Below are positions 4,052 through 52,835 of a stretch of 64,000 nucleotides of DNA, piece by piece. The stretch lies in assembly GCA_031425615.1 (NCBI GenBank), contig JANPJR010000030.1:146492-210491 (forward strand). Direction: 5' to 3'. Both the position numbers and the translations under genes were made by a program. The notes under the pieces are model-generated. The model saw only the letters and a list, made by a program, of their open reading frames with translations. It was not told where the DNA came from and made no database searches. How positions within the stretch are numbered: position 1 is the first letter of the stretch; each line of letters begins with the position of its first letter. This DNA comes from Cytophagales bacterium (GTDB lineage Bacteria > Bacteroidota > Bacteroidia > Cytophagales > Microscillaceae).

Positions 4052-4891
4052 TTATTTTCCTAACCATTCTTTAAAAACATTACTTTTTTCCCTGCTTATC
4101 AAAATATCCTCTTGTGTTTTGGGCGTGGGCAATAATTCTATTTTTAATTTCCCATTAAAATATGTAACAATTTGCTTGATAGCGTCTATTTGTGCAATAA
4201 ATTGGCGATTGAGGCGAAAAAAATTTGCGGGATTTAATTGGTTTTCTAAGTCATCTAATGAATAATCCACAAAATACCTTTTGTTTTCGTGTGTTACCAA
4301 AAAAACTAATTTTTCTTCTGCCTGAAAATATGCAATTTCTGTATTTTGGATAGAGGTCAATTTTTCGCCAATTTTTACCAAAAATCGGTTTTTATATTCT
4401 TTTTTTTCTACTTGCATTTGCTTGATTATTTCACGCAATGTAGCCATTTCTGGGGTATGGTTGAATTTTTTGGTTGATTTTTCATTGATTTTTTCAGTTT
4501 GATTATCTTTCAAAAAAAATAATTTTTGAATACTTTTTTGTAATTCGTCTTTGTTGATTGGTTTGAGCAAATACCCTATGCTATTGACCTGAAACGCTTT
4601 GAGGGCATATTCATCATAGGCAGTTGTAAAAATAATTGGAAAAGGTATATCCATCGCCTCAAAAATCTCAAAACTGACACCATCAGCAAGCTGAATATCC
4701 ATCATAATCAAGTCAATTTTTGTGTTATTTGCTTCATTATTTTGTGCATTAACATATTGTGGTATGCGGTCAATGGCATCAGCCACGCTATCAATGCGGT
4801 CAATGATGTGGGCATTTGGTATAATCTCTTGTAGCATTTTTTCCAATCTACGCACCGCAGGTGCTTCATCTTCTACAATAATAATATTCAT
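4052..4891 (-). CDS. LytTR-family two-component response regulator (REC plus LytTR DNA-binding domain)
   Basis: MNIIIVEDEAPAVRRLEKML... is a receiver domain with D/D/K residues. The C-terminal LytTR fold gives the FLVKIGEKL...YFQAEEKLVFL...RYFVDYSLDDLE pattern. Start placed at the internal ATG (MNIIIVEDE). The ORF track extends to 4945. The receiver carries an N/Q-rich insertion. Confidence 0.85.
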   Translation of the reverse strand: MNIIIVEDEAPAVRRLEKMLQEIIPNAHIIDRIDSVADAIDRIPQYVNAQNNEANNTKIDLIMMDIQLADGVSFEIFEAMDIPFPIIFTTAYDEYALKAFQVNSIGYLLKPINKDELQKSIQKLFFLKDNQTEKINEKSTKKFNHTPEMATLREIIKQMQVEKKEYKNRFLVKIGEKLTSIQNTEIAYFQAEEKLVFLVTHENKRYFVDYSLDDLENQLNPANFFRLNRQFIAQIDAIKQIVTYFNGKLKIELLPTPKTQEDILISREKSNVFKEWLGK

Positions 4892-5518
4892 GGTTGTTGT
4901 TTTGTTTATTAAAAAAAATAACAAAAATATGTTTGAAATTACCACAAAAATTATAAACTAAAAAATTATGCTAAAATTAACTTAGCAAAAAATTTCCTTT
5001 CCTATTTCCAAAAAAAACCAGTTGCCCACAAATAGAAATTCTAGAGATTTCCCCAAAAATGAAAATTGGTTTTCCCATTTTGGTTTTATTATCCCGCTAA
5101 AACCTACAAACATAAAAAAACCTCCCGATTCCAACATGCAACTCATTTTTAATCTGCTTACTACTACACAAAAGTATGATTTTTTCACTAAGAAATCAAC
5201 AAGCTAATTTTTTTAGCTATAAAAAAACCAATCACATTTTGAAATGAGAGAAATGATAATTTTACACAAATGATATTTTATTTATTTCCTGTTTCTTTGG
5301 GTGAATCAAAACCTATATGGAAAGAGGAAAAAGAAGCTTGGCAATCAAAGGAAAATAGACGAATAGAAATTGAGGTTTTTGAGTAGTATGAGCGTTTTTT
5401 TTTGCTATTACTTATTTACTATTACCCAAAACATCCTTTTTTTACATATTTATTGCTTTAAAAAAATAAAAAAACGTATTTTTGCATTTTTTTAACTTTC
5501 TAAATTGCCACAAAAAAC

Positions 5519-6040
5519 ATGATACTTTCAGGAAAAGAAATCGCAAAACGATTGGACAAAGACATTGTCATTACACCTTATAGCCCTGCACAACTCAACC
5601 CAAATAGCTATAATTTGCGTTTGCACAAAGATTTGTTGGTATATGATACGGAATGTTTGGACATGAAAACGCCTAATGCCACCAAAAAATTAGAAATTCC
5701 TGAAACAGGTTTGCGACTTTCGCCTTCTACTTTGTATCTTGGACGCACCGTAGAATATACCGAAACCCACAAATGCGTGCCAATGCTTGAAGGGCGTAGC
5801 TCTGTAGGGCGTTTGGGCTTGTTTATTCATGTAACTGCGGGTTTTGGTGATGTCGGTTTTTGTGGATATTGGACGTTAGAAATTTTTTGTGTCCAACCCA
5901 TTATTATTTATCCTAACACCGAAATTTGCCAAATTTATTACCATGATATTTTGGGCGAATATGACACCTATAAAAGCAACAAATACCAACACAATTCGGA
6001 AGTGCAACCCAGCATGATGTATAAAGATTGGGAAGTATAA
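5519..6040 (+). CDS. dcd: dCTP deaminase
   Basis: MILSGKEI...GRSSVGRLGLFIHVTAGFGDVGFCGYWTLEI is the canonical Dcd motif set. Confidence 0.93.
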   Translation: MILSGKEIAKRLDKDIVITPYSPAQLNPNSYNLRLHKDLLVYDTECLDMKTPNATKKLEIPETGLRLSPSTLYLGRTVEYTETHKCVPMLEGRSSVGRLGLFIHVTAGFGDVGFCGYWTLEIFCVQPIIIYPNTEICQIYYHDILGEYDTYKSNKYQHNSEVQPSMMYKDWEV

Positions 6041-6062
6041 ATATCTGTTTCCAAACAAAAAA

Positions 6063-6094
6063 GCCACAATGATACAATTTCATTGTGGTTTTTT
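6063..6094 (+). terminator. Rho-independent terminator hairpin (gccacaatg-atacaattt-cattgtgg plus T-run)
   Basis: Seen directly. A near-identical copy sits at 7747-7780. Confidence 0.75.
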
Positions 6095-6124
6095 TCCAAA
6101 AAAATTTTTTAGCTATTTTCTTAT

Positions 6125-6185
6125 ATAATGGAACGATTGTTCCATTATAATTGTATGAAATATAATGGAACGATTGTTCCACTAT
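6125..6185. promoter_or_regulatory. Two copies of the 16-bp palindrome TGGAACGATTGTTCCA, 36 bp apart, each embedded in ATAATGGAACGATTGTTCCAyTAT. Candidate TetR-type operator pair.
   Basis: Palindromes at about 6129-6144 and 6165-6180, 40 to 95 bp upstream of the SDR start at 6221. A TetR regulator is the next gene downstream. Confidence 0.55.
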
Positions 6186-6220
6186 ATTTATTTTTTTACC
6201 AAAATACAATTTTAATCAAA

Positions 6221-6982
6221 ATGAGTAAATTACAAAATAAACTCGCAGTAATTACAGGTGGTAATAGTGGCATAGGGCTTGCTACTGCAAAGCTTTTTAT
6301 CCAAGAAGGTGCAAAAGTTATCATCACAGGCAGAAATCAAAAAAATGTTGATGAAGCTATAAAATTATTGGGTGACAATGCAGTAGGAATTTTGGCAGAT
6401 ACCGCTAATATTGCCCACACAGACAGTTTAGTAAAACAAATTAGTGAAAAATTTGGAAAAATTGATGTACTTTTTGTAAATGCTGGCATTGCCAAATTTG
6501 CACCTATTGACCAAACAACTGAAGCATTTTTTGATGAAACCATCAACATCAACCTCAAAGGTGCGTTTTTCACAAGCCAAAAATTTGTACCTATTTTGAA
6601 AGATGGTGCATCTATTATTTTTAATACAACCATTGCCTATCATGTAGGAATGCCCAATGCGAGTGTATATGCTGCGAGCAAAGCAGGTTTGTTGGCTTTT
6701 GCTAAGGTATTGGCTACCGAAGTATCTACAAGAGGTATTAGGGTAAATTCGGTAAGCCCAGGCCCTATTGCTACACCAATTTATAGCAAACTTGGTTTTC
6801 CGCAAGAAGCTATTGATGCTATGGGGTCTGCGCTTTCTGCAAAAACGCTTTTAGGACGTTTTGGAGAAGCAGAAGAAATCGCAAAAGTAGCTTTGTTTTT
6901 GGCAAGCAATGACAGTTCTTATATCACAGGGGCAGAAATCATAGCTGATGGCGGATTACTTTTAAATCCAACAGACAGGTAG
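6221..6982 (+). CDS. SDR-family NAD(P)-dependent oxidoreductase
   Basis: MSKLQNKLAVITGGNSGIGLATAK gives the TGxxxGIG Rossmann motif. YAASK is the catalytic YxxxK. Start moved to the in-frame ATG at 6221 (the track ORF starts at 6128 inside the operator region). Confidence 0.9.
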   Translation: MSKLQNKLAVITGGNSGIGLATAKLFIQEGAKVIITGRNQKNVDEAIKLLGDNAVGILADTANIAHTDSLVKQISEKFGKIDVLFVNAGIAKFAPIDQTTEAFFDETININLKGAFFTSQKFVPILKDGASIIFNTTIAYHVGMPNASVYAASKAGLLAFAKVLATEVSTRGIRVNSVSPGPIATPIYSKLGFPQEAIDAMGSALSAKTLLGRFGEAEEIAKVALFLASNDSSYITGAEIIADGGLLLNPTDR

Positions 6983-7107
6983 ATTTTTAGAGATTTTTTC
7001 CAAAAACTAAATACCTTTGCTTTCCGTTTTTGAAAGTGAAGGTATTTTTTTGTATTTTCAATTTTTCGCTTGATTTTCGTTTTTTAAAAACCAATTCCAA
7101 AATAATT

Positions 7108-7686
7108 ATGGCACGCACAAAAAGATTTGAAGAATGTGAAATATTGGAAAAAGCAATTTCACTTTTTTGGACAAAAGGCTATCATGCTACTTCTATTGAT
7201 GATTTGACCAAATACTTGGGCATTAGTAGGTCAAGTTTGTATGATACTTTTGGCGGAAAAAAAGAACTTTTTATGATTTCTTTGCAAAATTATATCCAAA
7301 AATCGCATCAACAAGTATTTTCAATTGTAAAAGATACAATTTCAGGCATTGAAAAAATACAAGTTTTAGTTAAAAACGTAATTGAAAGTTTTGCTGATGG
7401 AAAAGAACGAAAAGGCTGTTTTATGGTAAATGTTGCCAGCGAATTAGCAAATCAAGATGATGAAATATATGAATTTACACAAAAAAACTTAGAAGCTGTA
7501 AAAGAAATATTTAAGAAAATAATTACACAAGGACAAATAGATGGCACTATTTCCACAAAAAATAATGCTGATAATTTGGCATATTTTTTATTTAATATGT
7601 ATAATGGACTGCAAGTATCAGGCAAAATGGGTGCTTCGCAAGAAACGCTCTGGTCTATGTGGTATGTAGCAGAAACGTGTTTTTAA
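7108..7686 (+). CDS. TetR/AcrR-family transcriptional regulator
   Basis: MARTKRFEECEILEKAISLFWTKGYHATSIDDLTKYLGISRSSLYDTFGGKKELF is the TetR N-terminal HTH. Start placed at the in-frame ATG at 7108. Confidence 0.9.
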   Translation: MARTKRFEECEILEKAISLFWTKGYHATSIDDLTKYLGISRSSLYDTFGGKKELFMISLQNYIQKSHQQVFSIVKDTISGIEKIQVLVKNVIESFADGKERKGCFMVNVASELANQDDEIYEFTQKNLEAVKEIFKKIITQGQIDGTISTKNNADNLAYFLFNMYNGLQVSGKMGASQETLWSMWYVAETCF

Positions 7687-7746
7687 AAAATTTGATTTAG
7701 TTTATGTTTTATATTTTTTCAATTTTCAAATAAAAAAGCCAAAAAA

Positions 7747-7780
7747 GCCACAATGATACAATTTCATTGTGGCTTTTTTA
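7747..7780 (+). terminator. Rho-independent terminator, duplicate of 6063-6094 (gccacaatgatacaatttcattgtggc plus T-run)
   Basis: Identical 27-nt hairpin sequence, seen directly. Confidence 0.75.
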
Positions 7781-7887
7781 TTTTTAGTATAAAAAAATTG
7801 GGTAATTTTACTTTTTTTTAGGTTTTTTAAATTTTTTGGATAAATTTACTTTTTTTTTAGATTTTCAAAATTTTAATAATATATTAC

Positions 7888-8162
7888 CTTACTACTATAC
7901 ATCTTTTTAGAATTTTAAAAAAGTGCTTTTAAACGATTTAAACACAATATTTTTAATAACATTTTCGAAAAATTGGGTCTGCACCGTAGTTTATGGAGGT
8001 CTGCCCCTGTTTTTTTGAAAAATTACAAACTGAAAACAGCGTTAAACACCATATTTGTTTTAGTTTTTCAAAAAAACGTATTATTTTTTAGTAAAAACTA
8101 TTTAAAAAAGCCTTTTTCCTGCGTTTTGAGTATTTTTTTTTTTAAATCTGTATAGTAGTAAG
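7888..8162. mobile_element. MITE-like non-autonomous element, copy A (~275 bp). Perfect 14-bp TIRs CTTACTACTATACA / TGTATAGTAGTAAG with a 9-bp TSD ATATATTAC.
   Basis: TIRs at 7888-7901 and 8149-8162. The direct repeat atatattac flanks both ends (7879-7887 and 8163-8171). About 90% identical to copy B at 25626-25898. The only ORF inside is a spurious 60-aa frame. Confidence 0.75.
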
Positions 8163-8205
8163 ATATATTACATAAAAAACCACTAAAACTTAAATACACA
8201 CTGTT

Positions 8206-10137
8206 ATGATTTTACAACTCGACATTCAACGCATTATTGCACAAGCTACACATACATTTAAGCGATTTCCGTTGGTGATGTTGTCTGCAATTTTGGCCAC
8301 TGTTTTTTCTATGATTTTGATAGACTTAGACCAAAGTTCGAGCAAGATAGATGCAAATTTGGTAATTAACTTAGGCAAATGGATAAGCGTATTTTACTTA
8401 GGCTTATCTTTGTGTTTTGCATTTGCGTTATTTTGTGAAAAAAATCAACTCTCACCCATACAATCTGCTATCATGCAGGGCGGAAGCGTAATAATATTAT
8501 TGGGTACGAGATTTCTTATTTTGGACAACCCTAATTATGCTACATCTATACCCCAATTTATATTTTTAAGTGTTTTTGCACATTTAGCGGTATCTTTTGC
8601 TTCTTATTTGAATGATGGAGAAGAAAATGGTTTTTGGTATTTCAACCAATTTTTATTTTTCAGGTTTTGTCTTTCCGTGTTATATTCTGTTGTATTATTT
8701 GTGGGTATTGCTGGAGCTTTGGGTGCGATACAGGTTCTTTTTGGGTCAGATATTACCCCAAAAATTTATTTTAAAATATGGGTATTCATAGCAACATTGT
8801 TTAATACTTGGTTTTTTTTGGCTGGTGTCCCTGACGATTACAAAGCCTTAGACGCTTACACCGAATACCCACAACAACTCAAGGTTTTTACACAATTTGT
8901 GTTAATTCCCTTGATAACATTGTATTTAGGTATTTTGTATTTGTATGAGGTAAAATTGGCAATAGATTGGCATTTGCCAAAAGGTTTGGTATCTTATTTG
9001 GTGCTTGCTTTTTCTATAGGCGGAATTTTTTCTTTGCTTTTGATACACCCAATTAGAGAAAAAAATGGCAATCAATGGGTAAAAATATATGCCAAAACGT
9101 TTTATATTGCTATTCTACCACTTATTGCTTTGCTTTTTGTTAGCATTGGTTTGCGTGTGGTGCAATATGGCATTACTGAGAATCGCTACATTATTTTGAT
9201 GCTTGCTTTTTGGCTTTTGGGTACAAGTGCCAATGGATTGGTCAATAAAAACCAATACATTAAATCCATTCCCATATCACTGAGTGTGATAGTACTTTTT
9301 ATGGGTTTCATGCCTTTTATCAATGCTTTTGATGTGGCAAGATGGGAACAAAATCGTATTTTGCACCAACTTTTAACCAAAAATAATATCTGGAATAATG
9401 GAACACTTACTCCAAAAACTACAAAAGACTACGAACAAATTACATCTATATTGGAATATCTCAATAATAGAGGGAAAATAAAAGATATAGAAAAATATTT
9501 GGGAAAAAATAAAACAGAACTGTTGGTTTTTGAAAAAGACGAACCCGAAAATATAGAAAAGAAAAATGAAATGGCAAAAGATTTACAAAAATTAAACTAT
9601 GAACGCCTCAAAAAGCTAAAAGCAAGTTTTGCCATCAACACCAATCCAAACAAACAAGACAATGGCAAATATGCTAATGTGGAAAACTATGAAAACCCTA
9701 CAAATAAAGATTTTGTAGCAGTAGAAGGCTTTAAATCAATGTATATAGGTAATTTTTATAACTATATCCAATATGACGAAGATGATAAAGTCAAAAAAAT
9801 AGAAGAAACCAAAATTACAATGTCAGGCATGGATACACAGCTCGATATTCGTTTTCACCCATTGACACATGAATTAAACATGATTTTTAAACAAAACCTA
9901 AAAAAAGATATACCACAAACCGCAAGCATTACCTTTAATATCATGCCCCTGGTGGAAAAAATCTATAAAAAATCAAAAGAAAATAACATCTCACAAGAAG
10001 ATTTTTATCAAGATTTTGCCAATGAATCCAAAAGACTACAAGGCAGACTTGTGGTCAAAAGTCTTGGTGTTGTGCCTATCAAAGACACCAAAAGTTTTGG
10101 TATTCAATCACTTTATTTTTATATTTTGTTGAAATAA
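8206..10137 (+). CDS. Polytopic inner-membrane protein with a C-terminal K/N-rich soluble domain (DUF4153-like architecture). Function unknown.
   Basis: 643 aa. About 10 to 12 hydrophobic helices in the first ~400 aa, then a charged low-complexity tail. Confidence 0.65.
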   Translation: MILQLDIQRIIAQATHTFKRFPLVMLSAILATVFSMILIDLDQSSSKIDANLVINLGKWISVFYLGLSLCFAFALFCEKNQLSPIQSAIMQGGSVIILLGTRFLILDNPNYATSIPQFIFLSVFAHLAVSFASYLNDGEENGFWYFNQFLFFRFCLSVLYSVVLFVGIAGALGAIQVLFGSDITPKIYFKIWVFIATLFNTWFFLAGVPDDYKALDAYTEYPQQLKVFTQFVLIPLITLYLGILYLYEVKLAIDWHLPKGLVSYLVLAFSIGGIFSLLLIHPIREKNGNQWVKIYAKTFYIAILPLIALLFVSIGLRVVQYGITENRYIILMLAFWLLGTSANGLVNKNQYIKSIPISLSVIVLFMGFMPFINAFDVARWEQNRILHQLLTKNNIWNNGTLTPKTTKDYEQITSILEYLNNRGKIKDIEKYLGKNKTELLVFEKDEPENIEKKNEMAKDLQKLNYERLKKLKASFAINTNPNKQDNGKYANVENYENPTNKDFVAVEGFKSMYIGNFYNYIQYDEDDKVKKIEETKITMSGMDTQLDIRFHPLTHELNMIFKQNLKKDIPQTASITFNIMPLVEKIYKKSKENNISQEDFYQDFANESKRLQGRLVVKSLGVVPIKDTKSFGIQSLYFYILLK

Positions 10138-11107: not shown

Positions 11108-11179
11108 CTTAAAAATGCAAAATATAATTTGGTGTAAATTAAAAAAATGAATTAACCAATTACTGAAAAAGTTATTTTC

Positions 11180-11212
11180 TGAACCTTAAACCTTTGAACC
11201 TTTTAAACTTTC
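11180..11212 (+). repeat. TTGAACCTT-family 9-mer tandem array, overlapping the dtd C-terminus
   Basis: tgaaccttaaacctttgaaccttttaaacttt. Its reverse complement encodes ...ESLKGSKV* of dtd. Confidence 0.7.
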
Positions 11213-11644
11213 CAATATAATTGTAACAGGTCCGTCATTGCACAAAGTTACTTGCATATCTGCCCCAAATTCACCTGTTGGAATAGGTTTTTGAAGAAGA
11301 TTTTGCAAAGTTATCACAAAATTATCATACAAAATTTTTGCTTTACCGGGTTTTGCGGATTTGATAAAAGATGGGCGATTGCCTTTTTGGGTATCTGCAT
11401 AAAGCGTAAATTGACTTATGACCAATATTTCACCTTGAATGTCCTGCACAGAAAGATTCATTTTACCATTTTCATCTGAAAAAATACGCATCTGCACAAT
11501 TTTTTTAGTCAAATATTGTATATCTTTCTCCTCGTCATCCTCCCCTACGCCCAACAATACCAATAAACCTTTTTTTATCTCGCCTTTTACATTGCCTTCT
11601 ATGCTTACTTGTGCATGGCTCACACGTTGAATAAGTGCTATCAT
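11186..11644 (-). CDS. dtd: D-aminoacyl-tRNA deacylase
   Basis: MIALIQRVSHAQVSIEG...GLLVLLGV...ISQFTLYADTQKGNRPSF...NDGPVTI are canonical Dtd motifs. Confidence 0.92.
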   Translation of the reverse strand: MIALIQRVSHAQVSIEGNVKGEIKKGLLVLLGVGEDDEEKDIQYLTKKIVQMRIFSDENGKMNLSVQDIQGEILVISQFTLYADTQKGNRPSFIKSAKPGKAKILYDNFVITLQNLLQKPIPTGEFGADMQVTLCNDGPVTIILESLKGSKV

Positions 11645-11777
11645 GATATTGTTGTTGTATCAATTTATTCAGTTTTTTGTTATCTGTTTATTTTTTGTTA
11701 CCTGTTTATCTATCTAAAACTCAATGGATTTTTTTAGCTCTTTGAATTTAACCTAAAAAAAAACAAAAATTATCCTT

Positions 11778-11828
11778 TTTGAACCTTGAACTTTTTGAAC
11801 CTTGAACTTTTAAACCTTGAACTTTCTA
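11778..11828 (+). repeat. TTGAACCTT-family tandem array (5-6 units) immediately 3' of the OmpA-family gene
   Basis: tttgaaccttgaactttttgaaccttgaacttttaaaccttgaactttc. Confidence 0.8.
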
Positions 11829-13172
11829 ATCTTTCACAACTTTTATCTCTACTCTGCGATTTTTGTGGCGATTTTCTTCTGTATCGTTTGGTGCTATTGG
11901 TTTGCTTTGTCCAAAACCTGTTGAACTGATGCGTGCTTTTTTGATAAACCCATGTTCCACAATATATTGTGCGATAGCTTGCGAGCGGTCTTTGGAAAGT
12001 TGGAGGTTAAAATTAGCATCACCAACATTGTCAGTATGCCCTGAGATTTCAATATGATAATTTGGGTGGTCTTGCAAAAATTGGCTTATCATATTCAATT
12101 CGGGAAAACTATTTTTACCAATAACTGCCTTTCCTGTTTCAAATTCAATATTGGGCAAAATCAAAATAGCCCCCAAATTACTGGGTTGCAACACAAAATT
12201 TTGTTCTACAATTTTTTGATTTGGCTTCAATTCCACCAAAATACGTTGGCTAAAAAAACCTTGTGCTTTTGCCTCCAAATAAAATTTGTTGGTATATTGC
12301 ATACGACTAAACTCATATTGTCCTTTTTCTTTTTTGTCTTTATTTTCCCTTTCAGTCAATTCAAAAGCCCTATAATTAACATCTGTAAGCACATAATCAA
12401 TGCGTGAGGCAAGCGGTTGAGCATCTATTCCACTAATAACTTTACCTTTAATTTGCACAAATTCTTCTTCGTCTGGCGAGTCGTCATCAAGCGGAATTAC
12501 TTGGATATCATCTATGTAATAATACGCCCCTTCATAGCCTCCTTTTTGCCTGCGAACTGCTTTTGTGCGTTCTATTGGAAAAAAATTGCCTACAAAAAGG
12601 TAGCTAAAATTTTCAGTTGGAATAACAGTTTTTTCTAATGTTGTCCAATTATTATAATCTGTCAAAGGATTTGCAAATTTAGCGTGTGCCATTTGTGCGT
12701 GATAGCTGTCTTTGGTGTCATTTGAAAATAACATACCCAAATTATCACAAGCAAAATTAGAATATTCTTCTGCCAAACTTGCTTTTAGGCTTATTTTATA
12801 TTTGTGCCCTTTGCGTACAGGCGAAGTAAGGCGTATAGCTATGATTTCTAACGGTGATTTGACATGATACGCCAAAATACCAGCATAATTCTTGCCTTCG
12901 GAAGGCATTTGATACCCAAAAAAATTATTTGGTGTTTGGATTTTATTGCTTTGGGCATCAGCACTAAATAAATCAGGCGTAAAATAATTTTTTTCCCAAC
13001 CTTCTGCATCTTCTATATCACCATATTCCACAGGAGGCATTTTAAGGATTTCAAAACCTCCATTTGGTACAAGATTTTTGGCAGAAATTGGATTTTTATT
13101 GGTTTCTTGTGCAAAATTTTCTTTGGAAAAAATTAAAAAAACCAATGTAAAAAAAATAAAATAGAAACGCAT
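11826..13172 (-). CDS. OmpA-family protein (N-terminal secreted domain plus C-terminal OmpA peptidoglycan-binding domain)
   Basis: Signal peptide. The C-terminus ISGHTDNVGDANFNLQLSKDRSQAIAQYIVEHG...NRRVEI is the OmpA_C motif set. Confidence 0.85.
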   Translation of the reverse strand: MRFYFIFFTLVFLIFSKENFAQETNKNPISAKNLVPNGGFEILKMPPVEYGDIEDAEGWEKNYFTPDLFSADAQSNKIQTPNNFFGYQMPSEGKNYAGILAYHVKSPLEIIAIRLTSPVRKGHKYKISLKASLAEEYSNFACDNLGMLFSNDTKDSYHAQMAHAKFANPLTDYNNWTTLEKTVIPTENFSYLFVGNFFPIERTKAVRRQKGGYEGAYYYIDDIQVIPLDDDSPDEEEFVQIKGKVISGIDAQPLASRIDYVLTDVNYRAFELTERENKDKKEKGQYEFSRMQYTNKFYLEAKAQGFFSQRILVELKPNQKIVEQNFVLQPSNLGAILILPNIEFETGKAVIGKNSFPELNMISQFLQDHPNYHIEISGHTDNVGDANFNLQLSKDRSQAIAQYIVEHGFIKKARISSTGFGQSKPIAPNDTEENRHKNRRVEIKVVKD

Positions 13173-13694: not shown

Positions 13695-16502
13695 ATGAAC
13701 TTTCAAAGCCTCTCTAAAATTTTGCCCAAAAGTAAAGTTTTAATTGCCCAAAATCCAAAAGTTGACTTAAAAAATCTCTCTACTGATAGCAGAGAAGGTT
13801 GTTTTTTAGAAAATACGTTGTTTTTTGCACTCGTAGGCGAAAGACGCAATGGACACGATTTTATACAAGAAGTTATCCAAAAAGGTGGAAGAAATTTTGT
13901 GATTTCTGAAAATATTGATATTGAAGAGTTACTGAAAAATGTATCACAAAACCAACCAGAAAACCATAAAAATATCGCTTTAAATATCATCAAAGTACAA
14001 AATACCTTATACGCTTTGCAACGCATAGCACAAACCCATAGAGAAAATTTTGAATATCCAGTTATTGCTATTACAGGAAGCAATGGTAAAACAATAATCA
14101 AAGAATGGCTCTCAGAAATACTGCAAAACTTGGGTTTAAGTGTGGTAAAAAGCCCAAAAAGTTACAACTCACAAATAGGTGTGCCACTTTCAGTATGGCA
14201 AATGTCAAATATGCACAATATTGGTGTATTTGAAGCAGGTATTTCTCAAGTAAATGAAATGCAAAATTTGGAAAAAATATTACAACCTAATTTTTGTATT
14301 TTTAGCAATATAGGCGAAGCACACAAAAATGGATTTCCTTCACACATAGAAAAAATTAAACAAAAACTTTTTTTAGCTAAAAATACCCAAAAATTGATTT
14401 TTAATTTGAAATATACCCAATTAAACGAAGTTGTTGATATTTTGGAAAAAGAAAGTTTTTTTGAAAATCCAATGTTTCAAAAAATTATTTGGGGTGAAAG
14501 TGAAATTATAGACCAGTTTTTAGAAAAAAATAATCCTAATTTTGAAGAAAAAATACAATATAACTCAGATTTAAACTCAAAATATTACAAGGTTTCTTAC
14601 AAGCCTAATAATACCCATAAAAAATCGGGAATTCTTATACATTGTGTCAATCCAATACATACCAACTTATCGCCTACATATTTGTTTGCTGTGCCTTTCA
14701 AAGATGAAGCGAGTTTGGAAAATATTGCCCATATATTGGTTTTTTTATTGGATTTTTTATTGGAAAATATTGATAAGGCATACCAACAAAATCAACAAAA
14801 TGGAAACCAAGAAAAATCAACAGTTTATTATGAAAAATCCCAAAATGTGAGGAAAAATATAGAAAATAGCATTGAAAATCTCCAACCTGTACAAATGCGA
14901 TTGCAACGCAAAGCTGGCGTAAATTACTGTACATTGATTGATGACACCTATAATAATGATTTGGAAGGCTTAAAAATTGCTTTAGATTTTACAGCAACAC
15001 AACACAATGATACTTACAAACGCAAAATTTTGGTGTTGTCTGCCCCAGCAAATCAACAAGTTTCGGTTGAAATTTATAGCGATTTGTTGGCTACTTATTT
15101 ATGGCAATATGTGATAGATGTATTTGTAGGAATTGGTGATTTTTTTACAGAAAACCGAGATTTTATGTTAAAAATTATAGAAAATAAAAACCCAAACCAT
15201 GAAAATGCAAACCATATAAATTCAAATCATTCAAAATTAAAAAAAATCATTTTTTTAAATAATACAACTGATTTTTTTACAAAATTTACCCAAAAAGATT
15301 TTTTTCAGGATATTATTTTGATAAAAGGTGCAAGAAAATATCAATTTGAACAAATCATAAATTTCCTACAAGAAAAAACGCACCGCACAACCTTAGAAAT
15401 AAACCTAAATGCCCTCACACACAACCTTAATTTTTATAAAAGTCTTATAAAACCTTACACAAAAATAATGGTAATGGTAAAGGCTTTTGCATACGGGACA
15501 GGACGCACAGAAGTTGCACAACTTCTACAACACAATGGGGTGGATTATTTGGCAGTTGCTTATACAGATGAAGCGGTTGCACTACGCAAAGAAGGCATCA
15601 CAATTCCGATTATGGTAATGAATCCCACAGAGGAAGATTTTCCAAAAATAATTACATACAATATTGAGCCTGAAATATATAGTTTTGAGTTGTTGGAAAA
15701 ATGGTTTTTTTATTGCAAAAATACACAAAAAACTGATTTTGCTATACACCTAAAACTTGATACAGGCATGAAACGTTTGGGTTTTGAAAGTGATGAAATT
15801 AATCTTTTATGTGATTTTTTAAGAAAAAATTTACCAAAAAATGCACTAATCAAAAGTATTTTTACGCATTTAGCAGGGGCTGATGACGCATTTCATAATG
15901 ATTTCTCTTTAAAACAAATTGATGTTTTTTTAAAAAATGCTAAAATTATTACAAATCCTTCAAATAAAATAAACAGAAATATGCCAAAACCATTTTTGCA
16001 TCTGGTTAATTCTGCTGGAATTGTGCGTTTTCCTGAGGCACATTTTGATATGGTGCGTTTGGGTATTGGTTTGTATGGTATAGAAACAAATGAGATTTTT
16101 GCAGACAAATTGCAAGCAATTACAACACTCAAAACACATATTTCACAAATCAAAAAACTCAAAAAAGGCGAATCTGTAGGATATAGTCGCACACACATTG
16201 CCCAAGAAAATACGCAAATTGCTACGATTGCGATTGGTTATGCTGATGGTTTGAATAGACTTTTGAGCAATGAAAATGGCGAAGTTTGGATAAAAAATAA
16301 ATTATGTAAGATTGTAGGGCGTATTTGTATGGATATGTGTATGGTGGATATTGGCAACCTTGTGGTGGAAGTAGGCGAAGAAGTAGAAATTTTTGGTAAA
16401 AATATTTCTGTGCAAAGTATTGCCAAAAAAATAAATACCATTCCTTATGAAATCCTAACATCAATAGGCGAAAGGGTAAAGCGGGTTTTTTTTACAGAGT
16501 AG
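13695..16502 (+). CDS. murF: Bifunctional UDP-N-acetylmuramoyl-tripeptide--D-alanyl-D-alanine ligase (MurF) / alanine racemase (Alr) fusion
   Basis: N-terminal MurF domain (AITGSNGKTIIKEWL P-loop). C-terminal Alr (KAFAYGTG PLP-lysine region, ...VMVKAFAYGTGRTEVAQ..., GYADG). Long N/Q/K-rich low-complexity insertions between and within the domains. Confidence 0.9.
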   Translation: MNFQSLSKILPKSKVLIAQNPKVDLKNLSTDSREGCFLENTLFFALVGERRNGHDFIQEVIQKGGRNFVISENIDIEELLKNVSQNQPENHKNIALNIIKVQNTLYALQRIAQTHRENFEYPVIAITGSNGKTIIKEWLSEILQNLGLSVVKSPKSYNSQIGVPLSVWQMSNMHNIGVFEAGISQVNEMQNLEKILQPNFCIFSNIGEAHKNGFPSHIEKIKQKLFLAKNTQKLIFNLKYTQLNEVVDILEKESFFENPMFQKIIWGESEIIDQFLEKNNPNFEEKIQYNSDLNSKYYKVSYKPNNTHKKSGILIHCVNPIHTNLSPTYLFAVPFKDEASLENIAHILVFLLDFLLENIDKAYQQNQQNGNQEKSTVYYEKSQNVRKNIENSIENLQPVQMRLQRKAGVNYCTLIDDTYNNDLEGLKIALDFTATQHNDTYKRKILVLSAPANQQVSVEIYSDLLATYLWQYVIDVFVGIGDFFTENRDFMLKIIENKNPNHENANHINSNHSKLKKIIFLNNTTDFFTKFTQKDFFQDIILIKGARKYQFEQIINFLQEKTHRTTLEINLNALTHNLNFYKSLIKPYTKIMVMVKAFAYGTGRTEVAQLLQHNGVDYLAVAYTDEAVALRKEGITIPIMVMNPTEEDFPKIITYNIEPEIYSFELLEKWFFYCKNTQKTDFAIHLKLDTGMKRLGFESDEINLLCDFLRKNLPKNALIKSIFTHLAGADDAFHNDFSLKQIDVFLKNAKIITNPSNKINRNMPKPFLHLVNSAGIVRFPEAHFDMVRLGIGLYGIETNEIFADKLQAITTLKTHISQIKKLKKGESVGYSRTHIAQENTQIATIAIGYADGLNRLLSNENGEVWIKNKLCKIVGRICMDMCMVDIGNLVVEVGEEVEIFGKNISVQSIAKKINTIPYEILTSIGERVKRVFFTE

Positions 16503-25600: not shown

Positions 25601-25625
25601 TTTTAAAGAAATAACTAAAAAATTC

Positions 25626-25898
25626 CTTACTATTATACATCTTTTTAGAATTAAAAAAAAGTGCTTTGGAACGATTTAAACACAATATTTTTAATGCCAT
25701 TTTTCAAAAATTGGATCTGTACTGTATTTTACGGAAGTCTGACCATGATTTTTTGAAAAATTACAAACTGAAAAAAGCGTTAAACACCATATTTGTTTTA
25801 GTTTTTCAAAAAAAACGTATTATTTTTTAGTAAAAACTATTTAAAAAAGCCTTTTCCTGCGTTTTGAATATGTTTTTTTAAATTTGTATAGTAGTGAG
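25626..25898. mobile_element. MITE-like element, copy B (~273 bp). TIRs CTTACTATTATACA / TGTATAGTAGTGAG. 9-bp TSD AAAAAATTC.
   Basis: About 90% identity to copy A over the full length. The direct repeat aaaaaattc flanks both ends (25617-25625 and 25899-25907). Confidence 0.75.
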
Positions 25899-30066: not shown

Positions 30067-30300
30067 GAGGCTATCATACTCTGATAATTTTAGCATTACT
30101 AAACCTATAATGTTTTTTAAAACCTTATAAGTTTTGAAACACTTATTTTAAATAATATGTTAAATTATAATTTAATTTTAAAAAAAACACTTAAAGATTA
30201 AAAAATAAATAAATTTTATATTTTTTTGTAACAAAAATATTGAAATAAAAACCTCCAATAAAATTGTCAGCGTACCAAGTCTATTAAATCAGAATTTTTT

Positions 30301-30355
30301 TGAATTTTGAACCTTGAACCTTTTGAACCTTGAACCTTTTGAACTTTGAACCTTA
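30301..30355 (+). repeat. TTGAACCTT-family tandem array (6 units) immediately 3' of cvpA
   Basis: tgaattttgaaccttgaaccttttgaaccttgaaccttttgaactttgaacctta. Confidence 0.8.
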
Positions 30356-30871
30356 ATCTATAAAATCTCGTATCATTTTGGATAATTCGTCTTCATCTTT
30401 TACACCTGTGAGAATGTATGCTACTGTTTCTACTAATTTATACATAAAAGATTTTTTTTGTAACTCATTATGAAATTCACCAAGCCCAGTCATAAACCAA
30501 AATATAAAACTCAATACCACAATATTACGCAAAATACCAAAAAATGCGCCTAAATAGTTGTCCCATTGTCCAGGAAATTCATAATCTATTTCAGATTTTA
30601 GATATTGCCCTAATGTATGGACAAGTTGCACAGCGGTAAGCACTGACACCGCAAAAACAAGTTCAGGATAGATGGTTTGATTAAATTTGAACATGTGCGT
30701 TGACATTAGATTGAACAATACTGAACAAAGTTTGAAGCACACCAAAAATGACAACACAAAATGCAAAAGCTTGACAACTTCTTGCAAAATGCCTTCTCTA
30801 TACCCAATATATGCACCCCAACCAATCGTGGAGGCTATCAATAAATCCAATACAATGCCTGGTATGTTCAA
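30353..30871 (-). CDS. cvpA: CvpA-family membrane protein (colicin V production protein-like)
   Basis: Four-TM CvpA architecture. The start codon is apparently TTG and overlaps an inverted TTGAACCTT-family array. Confidence 0.8.
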   Translation of the reverse strand: MNIPGIVLDLLIASTIGWGAYIGYREGILQEVVKLLHFVLSFLVCFKLCSVLFNLMSTHMFKFNQTIYPELVFAVSVLTAVQLVHTLGQYLKSEIDYEFPGQWDNYLGAFFGILRNIVVLSFIFWFMTGLGEFHNELQKKSFMYKLVETVAYILTGVKDEDELSKMIRDFID

Positions 30872-47075: not shown

Positions 47076-47111
47076 AAAACTGACGACTCAAAAACTGACA
47101 ACTGACAACTT
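47076..47111 (+). repeat. AACTGACGACT / AACTGACAACTGACAACT tandem array abutting the TPR gene stop
   Basis: aaaaactgacgactcaaaaactgacaactgacaactt. Confidence 0.65.
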
Positions 47112-47114
47112 ATT

Positions 47115-48314
47115 TTATTTTTTATTAAAAGTAGCTGCTTTGTTCCAATCTTCTTCTGCGCCTATGGCATCTCCCATGCGTTGTTTTACCAAACCACGAC
47201 TTATATAAGCCAGGGCATAATCTTTTTGGAGTTCAATGGTTTTATTAAAATCTGCTAAGGCTTCCGCAAATTTTTCCATGCCCATGTACAAATTTCCACG
47301 ATTATAATACGCATTTGTATTATTTTTATCTAAAACAATTGCTTTGTCCAAATCTTTTTGTGCTTCAGGGTATTTTTTTTGGTTGGTATAAATAATGCCA
47401 CGTTGCAAATACGCCAAACTATAATTATTGTCAAGTTCAAGGGCTTTATTGAGTTCTATGAGGGCTTCTTTTTGTTTTTTTAATTCTGCAAAAGTTGCTC
47501 CTTTATAATAATAAGGTGCTGGATTTTTACTATCCAATTTAATTACTTTATCAAAATCCACCATCGCATCAAGTCCTTTCCCTGCATTAAAAATGATAAT
47601 ACCACGTTGCAAAAACGCCTCTTTATAATTAGGATTTAATTCAATGGCTTTTTTCAAATCTGCCATTGCTTCTGGGATTTGTTTTTGGGTATTGTACCAC
47701 AAAGCACGATAAAAATAAGCGGTGTGGTCTTGTGGTGCGAGTATAATTGCTTTGTCAAAATCCTGTTTCGCTCCTTGAATGTCTTTCAGATTTTCTTTAA
47801 GAATTGCCCTATTCAAAAGCGTTTTTGCATCTTTTGGTTTTAATCGTAATACACTTTCAAAATCCATCAAAGCCCCTTCCATATCTTTTGCTTGATATTT
47901 GAGCAATGCAAGCTGAAAAAATGCTTTGTGGTCTTGTGGTGAGGCTTTGGTGGCTTTGGTAAAGTCATTGTAAGCTTGTTCTTGGTTTTTGAGTTCCAAA
48001 TACGCCAAACCTCTGTAAAAATAACCTTTTCCATCTTGTGGTTTCAATTCTAATAGCATATTATAATCTTGGATTGCACCTTGCAAATCACCCAAACTTG
48101 CTTTGGTAAGTCCTCTGCCACCGTAGGCATTTGGGTTAAATTTGTCCAATTTTATGCCTGCATCAAAATCCGCCAATGCTTCTTTAAATTTTTTACCTTG
48201 CAATTTTAAACTTGCTGATTTGAAATATTGTGTGGCATCTTGGGCGTTTATGTGTGCGGTTGAAATCCATACACATAACAATAAAAAAGATAAGAAATTT
48301 GATTTTAAAAGCAT
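47115..48314 (-). CDS. Tetratricopeptide-repeat (TPR) protein, secreted
   Basis: Signal peptide plus about 10 TPR units (AxxxYxxALxxxP pattern repeated). Confidence 0.85.
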   Translation of the reverse strand: MLLKSNFLSFLLLCVWISTAHINAQDATQYFKSASLKLQGKKFKEALADFDAGIKLDKFNPNAYGGRGLTKASLGDLQGAIQDYNMLLELKPQDGKGYFYRGLAYLELKNQEQAYNDFTKATKASPQDHKAFFQLALLKYQAKDMEGALMDFESVLRLKPKDAKTLLNRAILKENLKDIQGAKQDFDKAIILAPQDHTAYFYRALWYNTQKQIPEAMADLKKAIELNPNYKEAFLQRGIIIFNAGKGLDAMVDFDKVIKLDSKNPAPYYYKGATFAELKKQKEALIELNKALELDNNYSLAYLQRGIIYTNQKKYPEAQKDLDKAIVLDKNNTNAYYNRGNLYMGMEKFAEALADFNKTIELQKDYALAYISRGLVKQRMGDAIGAEEDWNKAATFNKK

Positions 48315-52338: not shown

Positions 52339-52522
52339 TAGCCTTTTCAAAAGAAGGCTTTTTTTAGAATTAAAAAATGAAAAAGAGATAAATAAAAATA
52401 TGCTTCTTATTGTGATAAAAAGCATATTTCTGCAAAAATAGTGATTTTTAAGAAAAAATCCAAATATAACCTAAAATCAAAAGAGGGAATTAGTACAAAG
52501 AGCAAAAAAGTAGCAAATTTTT

Positions 52523-52835
52523 CTCACTACTATACAAATTTAAAAAAAAACTTGTTCAAAATGCAGAAAAAGGTTTTTTCTAAATGTTTTTTATTGAAAA
52601 AATAATACATTTCTTTCTTACTACTATACAAATTTAAAAAAAATACATTCAAAATACATAAAACAGGCTTTTTTTAAGGATTTTACCTAAAAAAATATTT
52701 TTTTCTTTGAGAAATTAAAAAAAAATGCGTTTATGGTTGTGGTTGGTTGGTAAATTTTTAAAAATGTTATAAAAAAACCTTTTCAAACGATTTAAAACAC
52801 TTTTTTTAGACTGTGAAAATGTATAACAGTAAGAG
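52523..52835. mobile_element. Degenerate or rearranged MITE-like element, copy C. Two direct copies of the left TIR (CTCACTACTATACA at 52523, CTTACTACTATACA at 52607) and a degenerate right TIR (TGTATAACAGTAAG, about 52820).
   Basis: Shares the TIR motif and internal segments (aaacgatttaaaacac, ccgtaaaat) with copies A and B, but is diverged. Confidence 0.5.

Follow-up and report, generated by a model that had tools for sequence, protein, structure and literature searches.

Downstream of dcd in a 64,000-nucleotide stretch of Cytophagales DNA (which we refer to as the window), a gene for an SDR oxidoreductase is followed by a gene for a TetR-family repressor, and comparison with related loci strongly supports two tandem palindromes upstream of the SDR gene as the predicted operators of this repressor. 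We think it likely that the locus combines four parts: repression by TetR, an electrophile signal, a separate promoter for the TetR gene, and flanking terminators that were duplicated locally. TetR dimers would bind two 24-bp palindromic operators (core GGAAC-N4-GTTCC, as deduced from the comparison). A thiol-reactive electrophile or oxidant (by homology, candidates are quinones, unsaturated carbonyls, epoxides and chlorine species) would release TetR, and the SDR carbonyl reductase would be induced. With the same likelihood, which is that of the model as a whole, the module would be a detoxification switch that is complete in itself and widespread among Bacteroidota.

Genes of the locus

Profile searches confirmed the gene identities of the initial annotation, an SDR gene and a TetR gene after dcd (Table 1). 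dcd itself is the upstream neighbor and lies outside the SDR-TetR module. The SDR protein scored 213 bits against PF13561 and 167 bits against PF00106, and it narrowly missed the cut-off of the PRK06500 equivalog model (325 bits, cut-off 336). In its translation, the Rossmann motif TGxxxGIG reads TGGNSGIG and the catalytic YxxxK reads YAASK, as in classical SDRs. The closest solved structures are 4fgs and the Ralstonia alcohol dehydrogenase (4bms/4i5d); we presume a preference for NADPH solely from the nearest solved relative, RasADH. The SDR, a predicted carbonyl reductase, is probably the target under TetR control. The TetR gene starts 125 nt past the SDR gene on the same strand.

Table 1. 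Coordinates of genes, predicted regulatory sites and hairpins around the SDR-TetR module (positions in the window)
Feature	Positions	Strand	Description
dcd (dCTP deaminase)	5519-6040	+	PF22769 3.6e-39; TIGR02274 105 bits (cut-off 92.8)
Hairpin repeat, copy 1	6056-6095	+	A-run, 16-bp stem 6057-6072/6080-6095, 7-nt loop, T-run
Operator 1 (predicted)	6125-6148, core 6129-6144	none	ATAATGGAAC-GATT-GTTCCATTAT, perfect 10-4-10 palindrome
Predicted sigma-A -7 box of SDR promoter	6146-6153	+	TATAATTG (TAnnWTTG); predicted start ~6158
Operator 2 (predicted)	6162-6185, core 6166-6181	none	ATAATGGAAC-GATT-GTTCCACTAT
SDR oxidoreductase, 253 aa	6221-6982	+	adh_short_C2 4.3e-63
Intergenic hairpin and U-tract	7009-7054	+	5' arm 7009-7024, loop 7025-7031, 3' arm 7032-7047
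Predicted -7 box of separate TetR promoter	7012-7019	+	TACCTTTG, perfect TAnnTTTG, inside hairpin 5' arm
TetR-family repressor, 192 aa	7108-7686	+	TetR_N and TetR_C_13
Hairpin repeat, copy 2	7740-7779	+	Stem 7741-7756/7764-7779, 16 bp, 7-nt loop

Tandem palindromes as probable operators of TetR

The sequence TGGAACGATTGTTCCA occurs exactly at both operator cores, 37 nt apart (6129-6144 and 6166-6181), and these are the only GGAAC-N4-GTTCC sites in the 64-kb window. The 30-nt blocks around them (6123-6152 and 6160-6189) are 93% identical. The initial annotation had described a 16-bp palindrome; the two exact copies are indeed there, and each is more precisely a 6-4-6 inverted repeat around a non-symmetric centre, GATT. 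A literature search for the operator string found no paper.

The same design is present in about 85 other loci, which are mostly metagenomic and which come from Bacteroidota where the source names a taxon. The order SDR-then-TetR is kept in six close loci (TetR 56-68% identical), each with a different neighborhood, and in most of 80 distant loci, where the neighbors differ as well; the motif lies upstream of the SDR gene in the six close loci and in most of the 80 distant ones. (A metagenome scan with the TetR alignment gave only the distant tier, at 37-45% identity; the close family is represented by six loci, which came from protein look-ups.) Across 328 kb, GGAAY-N4-RTTCC occurs 105 times, and 102 of these occurrences are upstream of an SDR or TetR gene, as compared to a chance expectation of about 0.1 by our own estimate. 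Thus, the suggestion that the tandem palindromes are TetR sites is strongly supported by comparison, as the motif tracks the TetR family. By sequence and co-occurrence, the locus has what is characteristic of TetR-family regulators, a predicted operator with inverted repeats at the promoter of the adjoining gene.

Alternatively, the palindromes might serve a different DNA-binding protein, for example the LytTR response regulator encoded at 4052-4945, or they might function in the RNA, as hairpins or attenuators of the SDR leader. Paired with each other, the palindrome blocks would form a long hairpin (-31.7 kcal/mol), a terminator scan flags 6166-6181, and the LytTR gene is nearby. However, the motif accompanies TetR into loci that have no LytTR gene; it is conserved in sequence, including its GAT[C/T] centre, and not by covariation; among the 53 loci whose upstream region is complete, 26 have a single motif in front of TetR; and operator 1 lies upstream of the predicted transcription start. 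We consider this alternative extremely improbable, and we rejected the LytTR regulator as the binder because the motif tracks TetR and not LytTR. A search of 5000-8300 for known RNA families (Rfam) gave only sub-threshold microRNA artefacts, which were caused by the paired palindromes.

If the palindromes are operators of TetR, their placement fits repression of the SDR gene. Operator 1 fills the promoter spacer (about -29 to -14 relative to the predicted start), a Bacteroidetes -7 box comes next, and operator 2 is over the predicted start site (about +9 to +24). TetR on both sites would block transcription of the SDR gene. Such a -7 box (which in Bacteroidetes spans -12 to -5; PMC9723704) begins 2-11 nt past operator 1 in 46 of 54 loci, versus 0.02 expected. 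The SDR box of the window has one mismatch to TAnnTTTG, and no clear -33 TTTG was found at the right spacing for it. In the locus L014, the end of operator 2 is 12 nt from the ATG, which implies that the SDR promoter must be upstream of operator 2; a promoter 3' of operator 2 was rejected for the same reason.

A predicted TetR promoter within the probable SDR terminator

The hairpin between the two genes folds at -17.3 kcal/mol (z = -6.0). In 39 unique loci there are homologous hairpins that show covariation and sense-strand U.G wobbles, although these loci were picked by a pattern that contains the -7 box, which by itself accounts for part of the constancy of their 5' arms. The intergenic hairpin is probably the terminator or an insulator of the SDR gene: judging from the conserved sequence and the covariation, the SDR transcript would be stopped or insulated at 7009-7047. 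Many of the distant loci lack a good U-tract past the hairpin; in these, its role may concern translation or the stability of the RNA instead of termination.

The -7 box within the 5' arm predicts a start for TetR near 7024, which is the final nucleotide of that arm. We found TAnnTTTG in 72 of 81 unique TetR-upstream regions (0.088 expected), a count that is independent of the selection that defined the 39 hairpin loci. In L006, L085 and L100, insertions of 100-200 nt sit upstream of the TetR box and leave both box and hairpin intact; the short gap from box to ATG is retained in L085 and L100 and not in L006. Between box and ATG there are about 31-43 nt in most loci, but about 96-110 nt in L006 and the window. 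In the subfamily with one operator at each gene, the operator lies just upstream of the TetR box, as it does at the SDR promoter. In the subfamily of the window, the TetR -7 box has no operator, which implies that an unregulated promoter of its own probably drives TetR. Together, these features of the sequence suggest a separate, operator-free TetR promoter that is embedded in the SDR terminator. The second promoter would initiate at the end of the 5' arm and yield an RNA without it; because such an RNA could not form the hairpin, it would read into TetR.

The initial annotation had instead proposed a single autoregulated SDR-TetR operon. With a hairpin and a -7 box between the genes, this is doubtful for the window; autoregulation is expected in the sister subfamily, which carries an operator upstream of TetR. 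In its full form, this alternative holds that the two genes are one operon with an autoregulated TetR and that the operon arrived as a cassette, which duplicated the dcd terminator and left identical flanks. The genes are co-directional and just 125 nt apart, with both operators upstream of the SDR gene and none upstream of TetR, as a single operon would have it, but the strong hairpin with its U-tract and the conserved -7 box between the genes argue against it. Considering also the evidence about the flanks (below), we view this alternative as unlikely. We prefer a model in which the repressor of the window subfamily would be made independently of induction, and not from one autoregulated operon. 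Read-through from the SDR promoter into TetR may occur as well.

The repressor resembles CifR and NemR

TetR has the N-terminal helix-turn-helix of its family (PF00440, 2.4e-13, 50 bits versus a cut-off of 24, residues 12-55) and a C-terminal all-helical domain for ligand binding and dimerisation (PF16925 TetR_C_13, 43.7 bits versus a cut-off of 27). It aligns over its full length with the solved TetR regulators 2i10 and 6nsn, and in a profile search of solved structures the matches included 2i10 (2.4e-32), CifR (3.5e-31) and NemR (9e-13). No curated NCBIfam equivalog cut-off was reached (the top match, AcuR, scored 46 bits versus a cut-off of 247), which implies that TetR is not an ortholog of any named regulator. 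JGI annotates homologs of the window TetR as "repressor of nem operon". Among 18 homologs of TetR, Gly103 and Cys104 are invariant and Lys173 is at least 90% conserved. G103-C104 align with G106-C107 of CifR and with G105-C106 of NemR, at the start of helix 6, and Lys173 aligns with Lys175 of NemR, the lysine partner of the sulfenamide switch. Most likely, TetR belongs to the electrophile-sensing CifR/NemR branch, and it is from these Gly-Cys and Lys residues that we infer an electrophile signal.

The best-characterised structural homolog is CifR from Pseudomonas aeruginosa (PDB 6NSN/6NSM/6NSR). Both proteins have a Gly-Cys at the base of the ligand pocket and a basic N-terminal arm, and both systems have two separate operators and an enzyme as the target; the target of CifR detoxifies an electrophile. 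The response of CifR to epoxides requires Gly106-Cys107, and NEM abolishes its binding to DNA (PMC10827105). It has two operator sites, each of at least 23-27 bp, and its N-terminal arm enters the minor groove (PMC10827105). However, cifR is divergent from morB-cif, whose product is an epoxide hydrolase, whereas the TetR gene of the window is downstream of its SDR target on the same strand; the operators of CifR are long and weakly symmetric, while those of the window are sharp 6-4-6 palindromes; and CifR is from a different phylum and is only distantly similar in the alignment.

NemR, the repressor of nemRA-gloA in Escherichia coli (PDB 4YZE), shares the TetR_C_13-type fold. Upstream of nemR there is a 16-bp 6-4-6 palindrome, TAGACC-GACT-GGTCTA, in the same format as the sites of the window; this is reported to be the NemR box (Umezawa et al. 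2008). NemR controls a reductase of electrophiles, and its Cys106 and Lys175, which match Cys104 and Lys173 of the window, form its switch (PMC7464077). In contrast, the two proteins are just 16% identical and the half-site sequence differs, and nemR is the first gene of its own autoregulated operon, with an Old Yellow Enzyme and a glyoxalase as targets and not an SDR.

The arrangement also resembles classic two-operator modules (TetR/tetO1-O2 and QacR), with a dimeric helix-turn-helix repressor, an adjoining target gene, inverted-repeat operators over the promoter and start, and release triggered by a ligand, which for the window is a prediction. The classic regulators are usually divergent and autoregulated. 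The TetR gene of the window is co-directional and downstream, and its promoter is apparently buried in the terminator of the target gene.

As far as we found, the clade of CifR/NemR-like repressors that are paired with reductases is apparently uncharacterised. For this large clade, we propose the operator consensus GGAACGATYGTTCC with A/T-rich flanks. The pairing predicts a widespread response to electrophile or carbonyl stress in a phylum for which transcriptional regulation has been mapped only poorly. Placing the promoter of the repressor inside the terminator hairpin of the gene that it controls is a compact design, which would uncouple the level of the repressor from induction and could help both the annotation of Bacteroidota and synthetic biology in them. 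The locus is otherwise an ordinary but well-built bacterial switch.

In a plasmid-borne relative from Empedobacter, a flavodoxin-like gene replaces the SDR gene, and AGAAC-N4-GTTCT sites are at the same positions. The nearest plasmid homologs are at most 38% identical. This relative informs the design and is not evidence that the module of the window is mobile.

The flanking hairpins

As the initial annotation had reported, identical hairpins follow dcd and the TetR gene: the 26-nt sequence GCCACAATGATACAATTTCATTGTGG is exact at 6063-6088 and 7747-7772. The shared block extends to 40 nt (6056-6095 and 7740-7779), with 39 of 40 positions identical, 33 nt of exact match and one T/C difference, and there is no homology past the block on either side. 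Copy 1 begins 17 nt past the dcd stop and folds at -19.1 kcal/mol (z = -6.6); copy 2 begins 55 nt past the TetR stop and folds at -21.7 kcal/mol (z = -8.1). Copy 1 is probably the terminator of dcd, bidirectional in form, and copy 2 that of TetR.

The initial annotation had cautioned that a common genome-wide terminator would make the flanking coincidental. Searching the 64-kb window with the 26-nt sequence gave just these two copies and no others, even at 3 mismatches (0 expected by chance), so the hairpin is not common there. Among 185,579 species genomes (the source genome is not one of them), the stem had only four matches, all of them unrelated (Komeilibacteria, two Gracilibacillus, and Duncaniella). 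There were no exact copies in the JGI metagenome and viral collections, and the hairpin was absent from the 100-odd related loci. Look-ups of the exact proteins returned only short Logan contigs of SRR20217183, which are broken at the 33-nt repeat. Our count covers just 64 kb of the source genome, and other small dispersed intergenic repeats are present (a 275-nt MITE-like element 110 nt 3' of copy 2, and several short tandem motifs), as might be expected if the hairpin were a dispersed, REP-like terminator palindrome that flanks the module by coincidence. But with two copies in the window, both within 1.7 kb, and with the searches above, we judge this quite unlikely.

The evidence about arrival as a cassette is of two kinds. 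What lies between the 40-nt direct repeats is precisely the conserved unit; nucleotide homology to the module of a relative begins at 6098, directly past copy 1; and the module has a different neighborhood in each genome examined. Furthermore, dcd of GCA_013297825.1 (91% identical in amino acids) is followed by a different terminator and by no module, and the module of that genome sits on another contig. Against this, flanking repeats were absent from all 51 other modules (5 close and 46 distant), whose flanks share exact strings of at most 13 nt, with a single exception of 22 nt. We found no integrase or transposase domain in the open reading frames of at least 130 amino acids that lie at about 1-18 kb in the window (these are mostly housekeeping genes, with one 179-aa ORF without assignment), no mobility gene within about 6-10 kb of the module, and no foreign base composition (GC 0.30-0.38 in the module versus 0.29-0.35 in its flanks). 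In GCA_013297825.1 all other synteny is missing as well, and the closest dcd relatives (79-91% protein identity) have no synteny with the window. No relative keeps the synteny on either side of dcd, so relocation does not set the module apart. (The collections we searched held no relative closer than GCA_013297825.1.) Thus, the cassette insertion that the initial annotation proposed is not supported, though it is not refuted, and the flanking hairpins are a local oddity and no proof of a mobile cassette.

We favor ordinary intrinsic terminators: the 40-nt hairpins would have been made identical by recent local duplication or conversion in this lineage, and would be no defining part of the module. 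The duplicated terminator is then a curiosity of minor consequence, barring further copies or an empty site. It is also conceivable, if very unlikely, that the hairpins are the junctions of a recent relocation without a recombinase, in which the module inserted at a terminator hairpin and the whole hairpin was duplicated. If so, this would be a long target duplication at a cruciform, and the repeats could recombine and let the unit loop out again. Self-regulated modules of this kind would then use terminator hairpins as hot spots for insertion and move between neighborhoods, which could explain the differing neighbors.

In form, the unit recalls the cassettes of integrons, which are bounded by attC sites, as both are short gene units between hairpin-forming repeats. 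However, it has two genes, its own predicted promoters and no integrase, and homologous units lack the flanking repeat. Furthermore, attC sites are 57-141 nt long and have R''/R' core sites, whereas the hairpin of the window has the A-run, stem and T-run of a terminator. Copy 2 is also preceded by a 9-nt stutter, AAAAAAGCC, at 7732-7740, which is repeated at 7741-7749.

Probable operators upstream of the SDR gene

The gene pair that follows dcd, an SDR reductase and a TetR regulator, is present as the initial annotation had it, by gene and domain assignment, and so is the exact pair of 16-nt palindromes upstream of the SDR gene. There is no third GGAAC-N4-GTTCC site within the 64-kb window. 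The 30-nt blocks around the two palindromes are 93% identical (28/30), and copy 1 is a perfect 10-4-10 palindrome (ATAATGGAAC-GATT-GTTCCATTAT).

Features of the SDR-TetR region and other repeats (window coordinates)
Feature	Position	Remarks
LytTR response regulator		upstream of dcd, opposite strand
dcd	5519-6040	
Flanking repeat, copy 1	6056-6095	exact GCCACAATGATACAATTTCATTGTGG at 6063-6088
Operator 1	6129-6144	TGGAACGATTGTTCCA; block 6123-6152
SDR -7 box (predicted)	6146-6153	TATAATTG
Operator 2	6166-6181	TGGAACGATTGTTCCA; block 6160-6189
SDR	6221-6982	stop at 6982
Spacer hairpin	7009-7047	followed by TTTTTTTGTATTTT
TetR -7 box (predicted)	7012-7019	TACCTTTG
TetR regulator	7108-7686	start at 7108; TetR_N and TetR_C_13 domains
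9-nt tandem stutter	7732-7749	AAAAAAGCC twice
Flanking repeat, copy 2	7740-7779	exact GCCACAATGATACAATTTCATTGTGG at 7747-7772
MITE-like element, copy A	7885-8165	ends TACCTTACTACTATACA / TGTATAGTAGTAAG
DUF4153 membrane protein	8206-10137	
Mur ligase-alanine racemase ORF	13695-16502	935 aa
MITE-like element, second copy	~25625-25897	
End-like 30-mers	52520-52549; 52614-52643	direct copies
Short tandem motifs	11161-11849; 30282-30362; 31211; 34816; 45332; also 4027; 13273; 47076-47130; 48405; 60944	TTGAACCTTGAAC..., AAAACTGACAACTGACAAC...

The palindromes had been proposed as TetR binding sites, and comparison with related loci supports this. A search with the TetR protein returned the window's own protein, then seven at 56-68% identity, and then a large tier at 46% or below from Bacteroidota such as Spirosoma, Mucilaginibacter, and Flagellimonas, many of which JGI labels "repressor of nem operon". 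Complete upstream regions were recovered for six close loci (L006, L008, L011, L014, L103, and L106). In all six, an SDR of 251-253 amino acids adjoins the TetR gene on its 5' side and on the same strand, and two tandem GGAAC-N4-GTTCC-type palindromes lie upstream of the SDR gene (35-37 nt apart, measured by eye, in the window and two of these loci); the remaining neighbours differ (RtcB; AraC; a second SDR and a peroxidase; bVLRF1 and Era; OmpA). Using an alignment of 18 homologs as the query, we scanned metagenomes and obtained 80 further loci (328 kb) at 37-45% identity. GGAAY-N4-RTTCC occurs 105 times in these 328 kb, where we estimate that about 0.1 would arise by chance, and 102 of the 105 sites are at most 150 nt upstream of the SDR gene or in the SDR-TetR spacer. 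Their consensus is GGAACGAT[C/T]GTTCC, with A/T-rich and symmetric flanks. Among the 53 loci with complete upstream regions, 15 share the window's layout (two sites upstream of SDR and none upstream of TetR), 21 have one site upstream of each gene, 4 have two upstream of SDR and one upstream of TetR, 8 have a single site, upstream of SDR only, and 5 have none upstream of SDR.

Because the motif accompanies a single regulator family in about 85 unrelated neighbourhoods and the rest of their DNA is essentially free of it, the case that the palindromes are the cognate operators of the adjacent TetR family is as strong as sequence alone can give. The LytTR regulator is ruled out as the palindrome binder on the same grounds. 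An RNA structure is an unlikely explanation, as the motif is conserved in sequence, its centre included, without covariation. A literature search for the consensus string found no paper, and the regulon has apparently not been described before.

In Bacteroidetes, the sigma-A -7 box is TAnnTTTG, at -12 to -5 (PMC9723704). We found that a TAnnWTTG box begins 2-11 nt past the first palindrome in 46 of 54 unique SDR-upstream regions (0.02 expected); its gap to the second palindrome is 1 nt in the distant tier (the metagenome loci) and 9-13 nt in the close family. The window's box has one mismatch to the consensus. From its position, the SDR start site is predicted near 6158, which would put operator 1 at about -29 to -14 and operator 2 at about +9 to +24, the classic promoter-occluding arrangement. 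We rejected a promoter 3' of operator 2: in the close locus L014, just 12 nt separate the end of operator 2 from the SDR start codon, so a promoter there is impossible.

A predicted TetR promoter within a probable terminator

The SDR-TetR spacer contains a hairpin (-17.3 kcal/mol, z = -6.0) whose first eight paired bases past the A-run form a perfect -7 box. Of 81 unique loci, 72 have TAnnTTTG (0.088 expected) in the 90-100 nt that precede the TetR start, most often 31-43 nt away from the ATG; the distance of about 96-110 nt in the window and L006 is unusual. One subfamily has an operator upstream of TetR, and there the operator is found just 5' of the box, in much the arrangement of the SDR promoter. 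Because the box is so widely kept and is adjoined by an operator in this sister subfamily, it is the predicted -7 element of a TetR promoter.

The box doubles as the 5' arm of a stable hairpin in 39 unique loci. Its two free positions and the distal stem covary with the 3' arm (the covarying pair is G-C in 28 loci, C-G in 8, A-T in 1, and T-A in 1), and a T of its TTTG pairs with G in 16 of the 39, which is valid solely in the sense-strand RNA. These loci were chosen by a box-containing pattern, which by itself accounts for part of the constancy of the 5' arm but not for the covariation or the direction of the wobble. Taking G7019 as -5, the TetR start site is predicted at 7024, the base that ends the 5' arm. 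RNA initiated there would be missing the 5' arm and be unable to fold into the hairpin; RNA that comes from the SDR promoter would fold into it and be terminated. At loci with poor U-tracts (many of them distant), the SDR-promoter transcript would instead carry a stable structure beside the TetR start codon. We consider this putative promoter inside a terminator to be the most interesting detail of the system.

Three loci (L006 and the metagenome loci L085 and L100) have spacer insertions of 100-200 nt, made up of extra hairpins or repeats (such as cacaggcataaatgcctgtg and ataggcatttatgcctat in L006, 4701-5000). All are 5' of the box and leave the box and hairpin intact, and L085 and L100 keep the short box-to-ATG distance despite the insertion, a placement that fits dependence of TetR on a proximal promoter. 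Given the conserved box, the covarying hairpin, and insertions that spare both, we think that the window's TetR is made from its own operator-less promoter. Read-through from the SDR promoter into TetR is possible. The proposal of an autoregulated SDR-TetR operon would apply to the sister subfamily with its TetR-upstream operator, but not to the window, with its spacer hairpin and putative operator-less TetR promoter.

Flanking hairpins and the question of a cassette

Identical hairpins do bracket the module, as claimed, and no other copy of GCCACAATGATACAATTTCATTGTGG was found in the 64-kb window at up to 3 mismatches, nor any match in shuffles. The repeat is a 40-nt block, identical at 39/40 positions and exact over 33 nt; the lone difference (T/C) is just past the stem, and local alignment of wider flanks found no homology past the 40 nt. 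Each copy has an A-run, a 16-bp stem, a 7-nt loop, and a T-run (-19.1 and -21.7 kcal/mol, z = -6.6 and -8.1, for copies 1 and 2), matching a bidirectional intrinsic terminator in form. The hairpins are real. An independent k=31 assembly of SRR20217183 breaks precisely at the 33-nt exact repeat, into contigs of 2168 nt (dcd) and 1714 nt (SDR-TetR). The 330-kb contig with dcd and the module runs through the repeat; reads longer than a repeat normally resolve it. Exact copies of the hairpin were absent from JGI metagenomes and viral contigs, and the four stem matches in 185,579 species genomes are all unrelated.

These flanks had suggested that the module was inserted as a cassette, which our comparisons do not support. 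When the 400 nt 5' of SDR are compared with the 400 nt 3' of TetR, the longest exact string that they share measures 33 nt in the window and 10-13 nt in each of five close loci; of the 46 distant loci, one has 22 nt and the other 45 have no more than 15 nt. Judging from these 51 homologous modules, the hairpins do not belong to the module itself. The stretch at ~1-18 kb of the window has no integrase or transposase gene (its ORFs comprise an M16 peptidase, the LytTR regulator, dcd, DUF4153, D-Tyr-tRNA deacylase, an OmpA-family protein, a Mur ligase-alanine racemase fusion, an ABC ATPase, and a 179-aa ORF without assignment), and the module's GC content equals that of its flanks. In the nearest genome (GCA_013297825.1), dcd (91% identical in protein, 81.5% in DNA) precedes a 174-aa ORF and has a different terminator, and SDR and TetR (79% and 76% identical in DNA) are on another contig. 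Of four marks of a mobile cassette, three were lacking; on the fourth, an empty site, this genome has no module after dcd but lacks other dcd synteny too. Because its dcd neighbourhood differs from the window on both sides, relocation is not specific to the module.

The operator cores are identical at 16/16 positions in the window, versus 12-14/16 in the six close relatives (by eye), which suggests that one operator was recently duplicated or converted in this lineage, as for the hairpin repeat. A 9-nt stutter lies just 5' of copy 2 and overlaps it, and is absent at copy 1. Together these are several signs of recent short-patch duplication or conversion here. We read the hairpins as the ordinary terminators of dcd and TetR, made identical by such an event; insertion of the module with duplication of the hairpin seems to us improbable.

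Regulator type and reductase partner

By family profile, the closest solved relatives of the TetR protein are 2i10 (an uncharacterised Rhodococcus protein; 2.4e-32) and CifR from Pseudomonas aeruginosa (3.5e-31), with E. coli NemR more distant (9e-13). The regulator has the structural features of the TetR family and of its Gly-Cys subgroup. Across the 18 homologs, Gly103 and Cys104 are invariant and Lys173 nearly so; Cys104 aligns with CifR Cys107 and NemR Cys106, and Lys173 with NemR Lys175. Arg3, Lys5, and Phe7 at the N terminus are also invariant. Upstream of E. coli nemR is TAGACC-GACT-GGTCTA, which we take to be the NemR box (reportedly from Umezawa et al. 2008) and which has the 6-4-6 geometry of the window's operators.

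CifR's response to epoxides requires its conserved Gly106-Cys107 pair, and N-ethylmaleimide abolishes its DNA binding; it binds two sites as one dimer each, needs at least 23-27 bp per site, and contacts the minor groove via an N-terminal arm (PMC10827105). The invariant Arg3, Lys5, and Phe7 and the A/T-rich operator flanks fit such an arm. In NemR, Cys106 and Lys175 form the switch for chlorine species (PMC7464077). By analogy, the window's regulator would be a cysteine-bearing repressor that acts at two palindromic sites on a detoxifying enzyme's promoter and is released by a reactive small molecule. The window system differs from both in phylum, gene order, enzyme partner, and half-site sequence, and TetR reached no curated equivalog model (the best was AcuR, 46 bits against a cut-off of 247). 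The protein probably works like CifR and NemR, yet is not an ortholog of a named regulator.

The SDR's nearest solved structures are 4fgs and a Ralstonia alcohol dehydrogenase (4bms, 4i5d), presumably an NADPH-dependent reductase of bulky ketones. In the metagenome loci (L023-L102), two SDR classes occur upstream of TetR, about 50-58% and 33-36% identical to the window's SDR, and the latter, which fills the same position in the distant tier, nearly always has the tandem two-operator layout. On an Empedobacter brevis plasmid (pSE1-3-20kb, NZ_CP043636.1; L110), a 38% identical TetR relative follows a flavodoxin-family gene, without an SDR; AGAAC-N4-GTTCT palindromes lie upstream of both genes (1760-1775 and 2446-2461 of that locus), and the TACCTTTG box is the 5' arm of a hairpin directly before the TetR start codon. 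Because a second SDR class and a flavodoxin-like protein can fill the SDR position, the reductase partner seems to be interchangeable. A detoxification role fits these data, and the class of inducer would be as for CifR and NemR.

Other features of the window

In the Mur ligase-alanine racemase ORF, a Mur-ligase middle domain shares one polypeptide with a complete alanine racemase, and the ORF resembles a MurF-Alr type fusion. A MITE-like element of about 275 nt with terminal inverted repeats lies 110 nt downstream of hairpin copy 2 and has no Rfam match; its second copy, in another intergenic region, is about 90% identical inside and unrelated outside, and a 30-mer like its end has two further direct copies. 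Short tandem motifs in many intergenic regions represent dispersed low-complexity repeat families.
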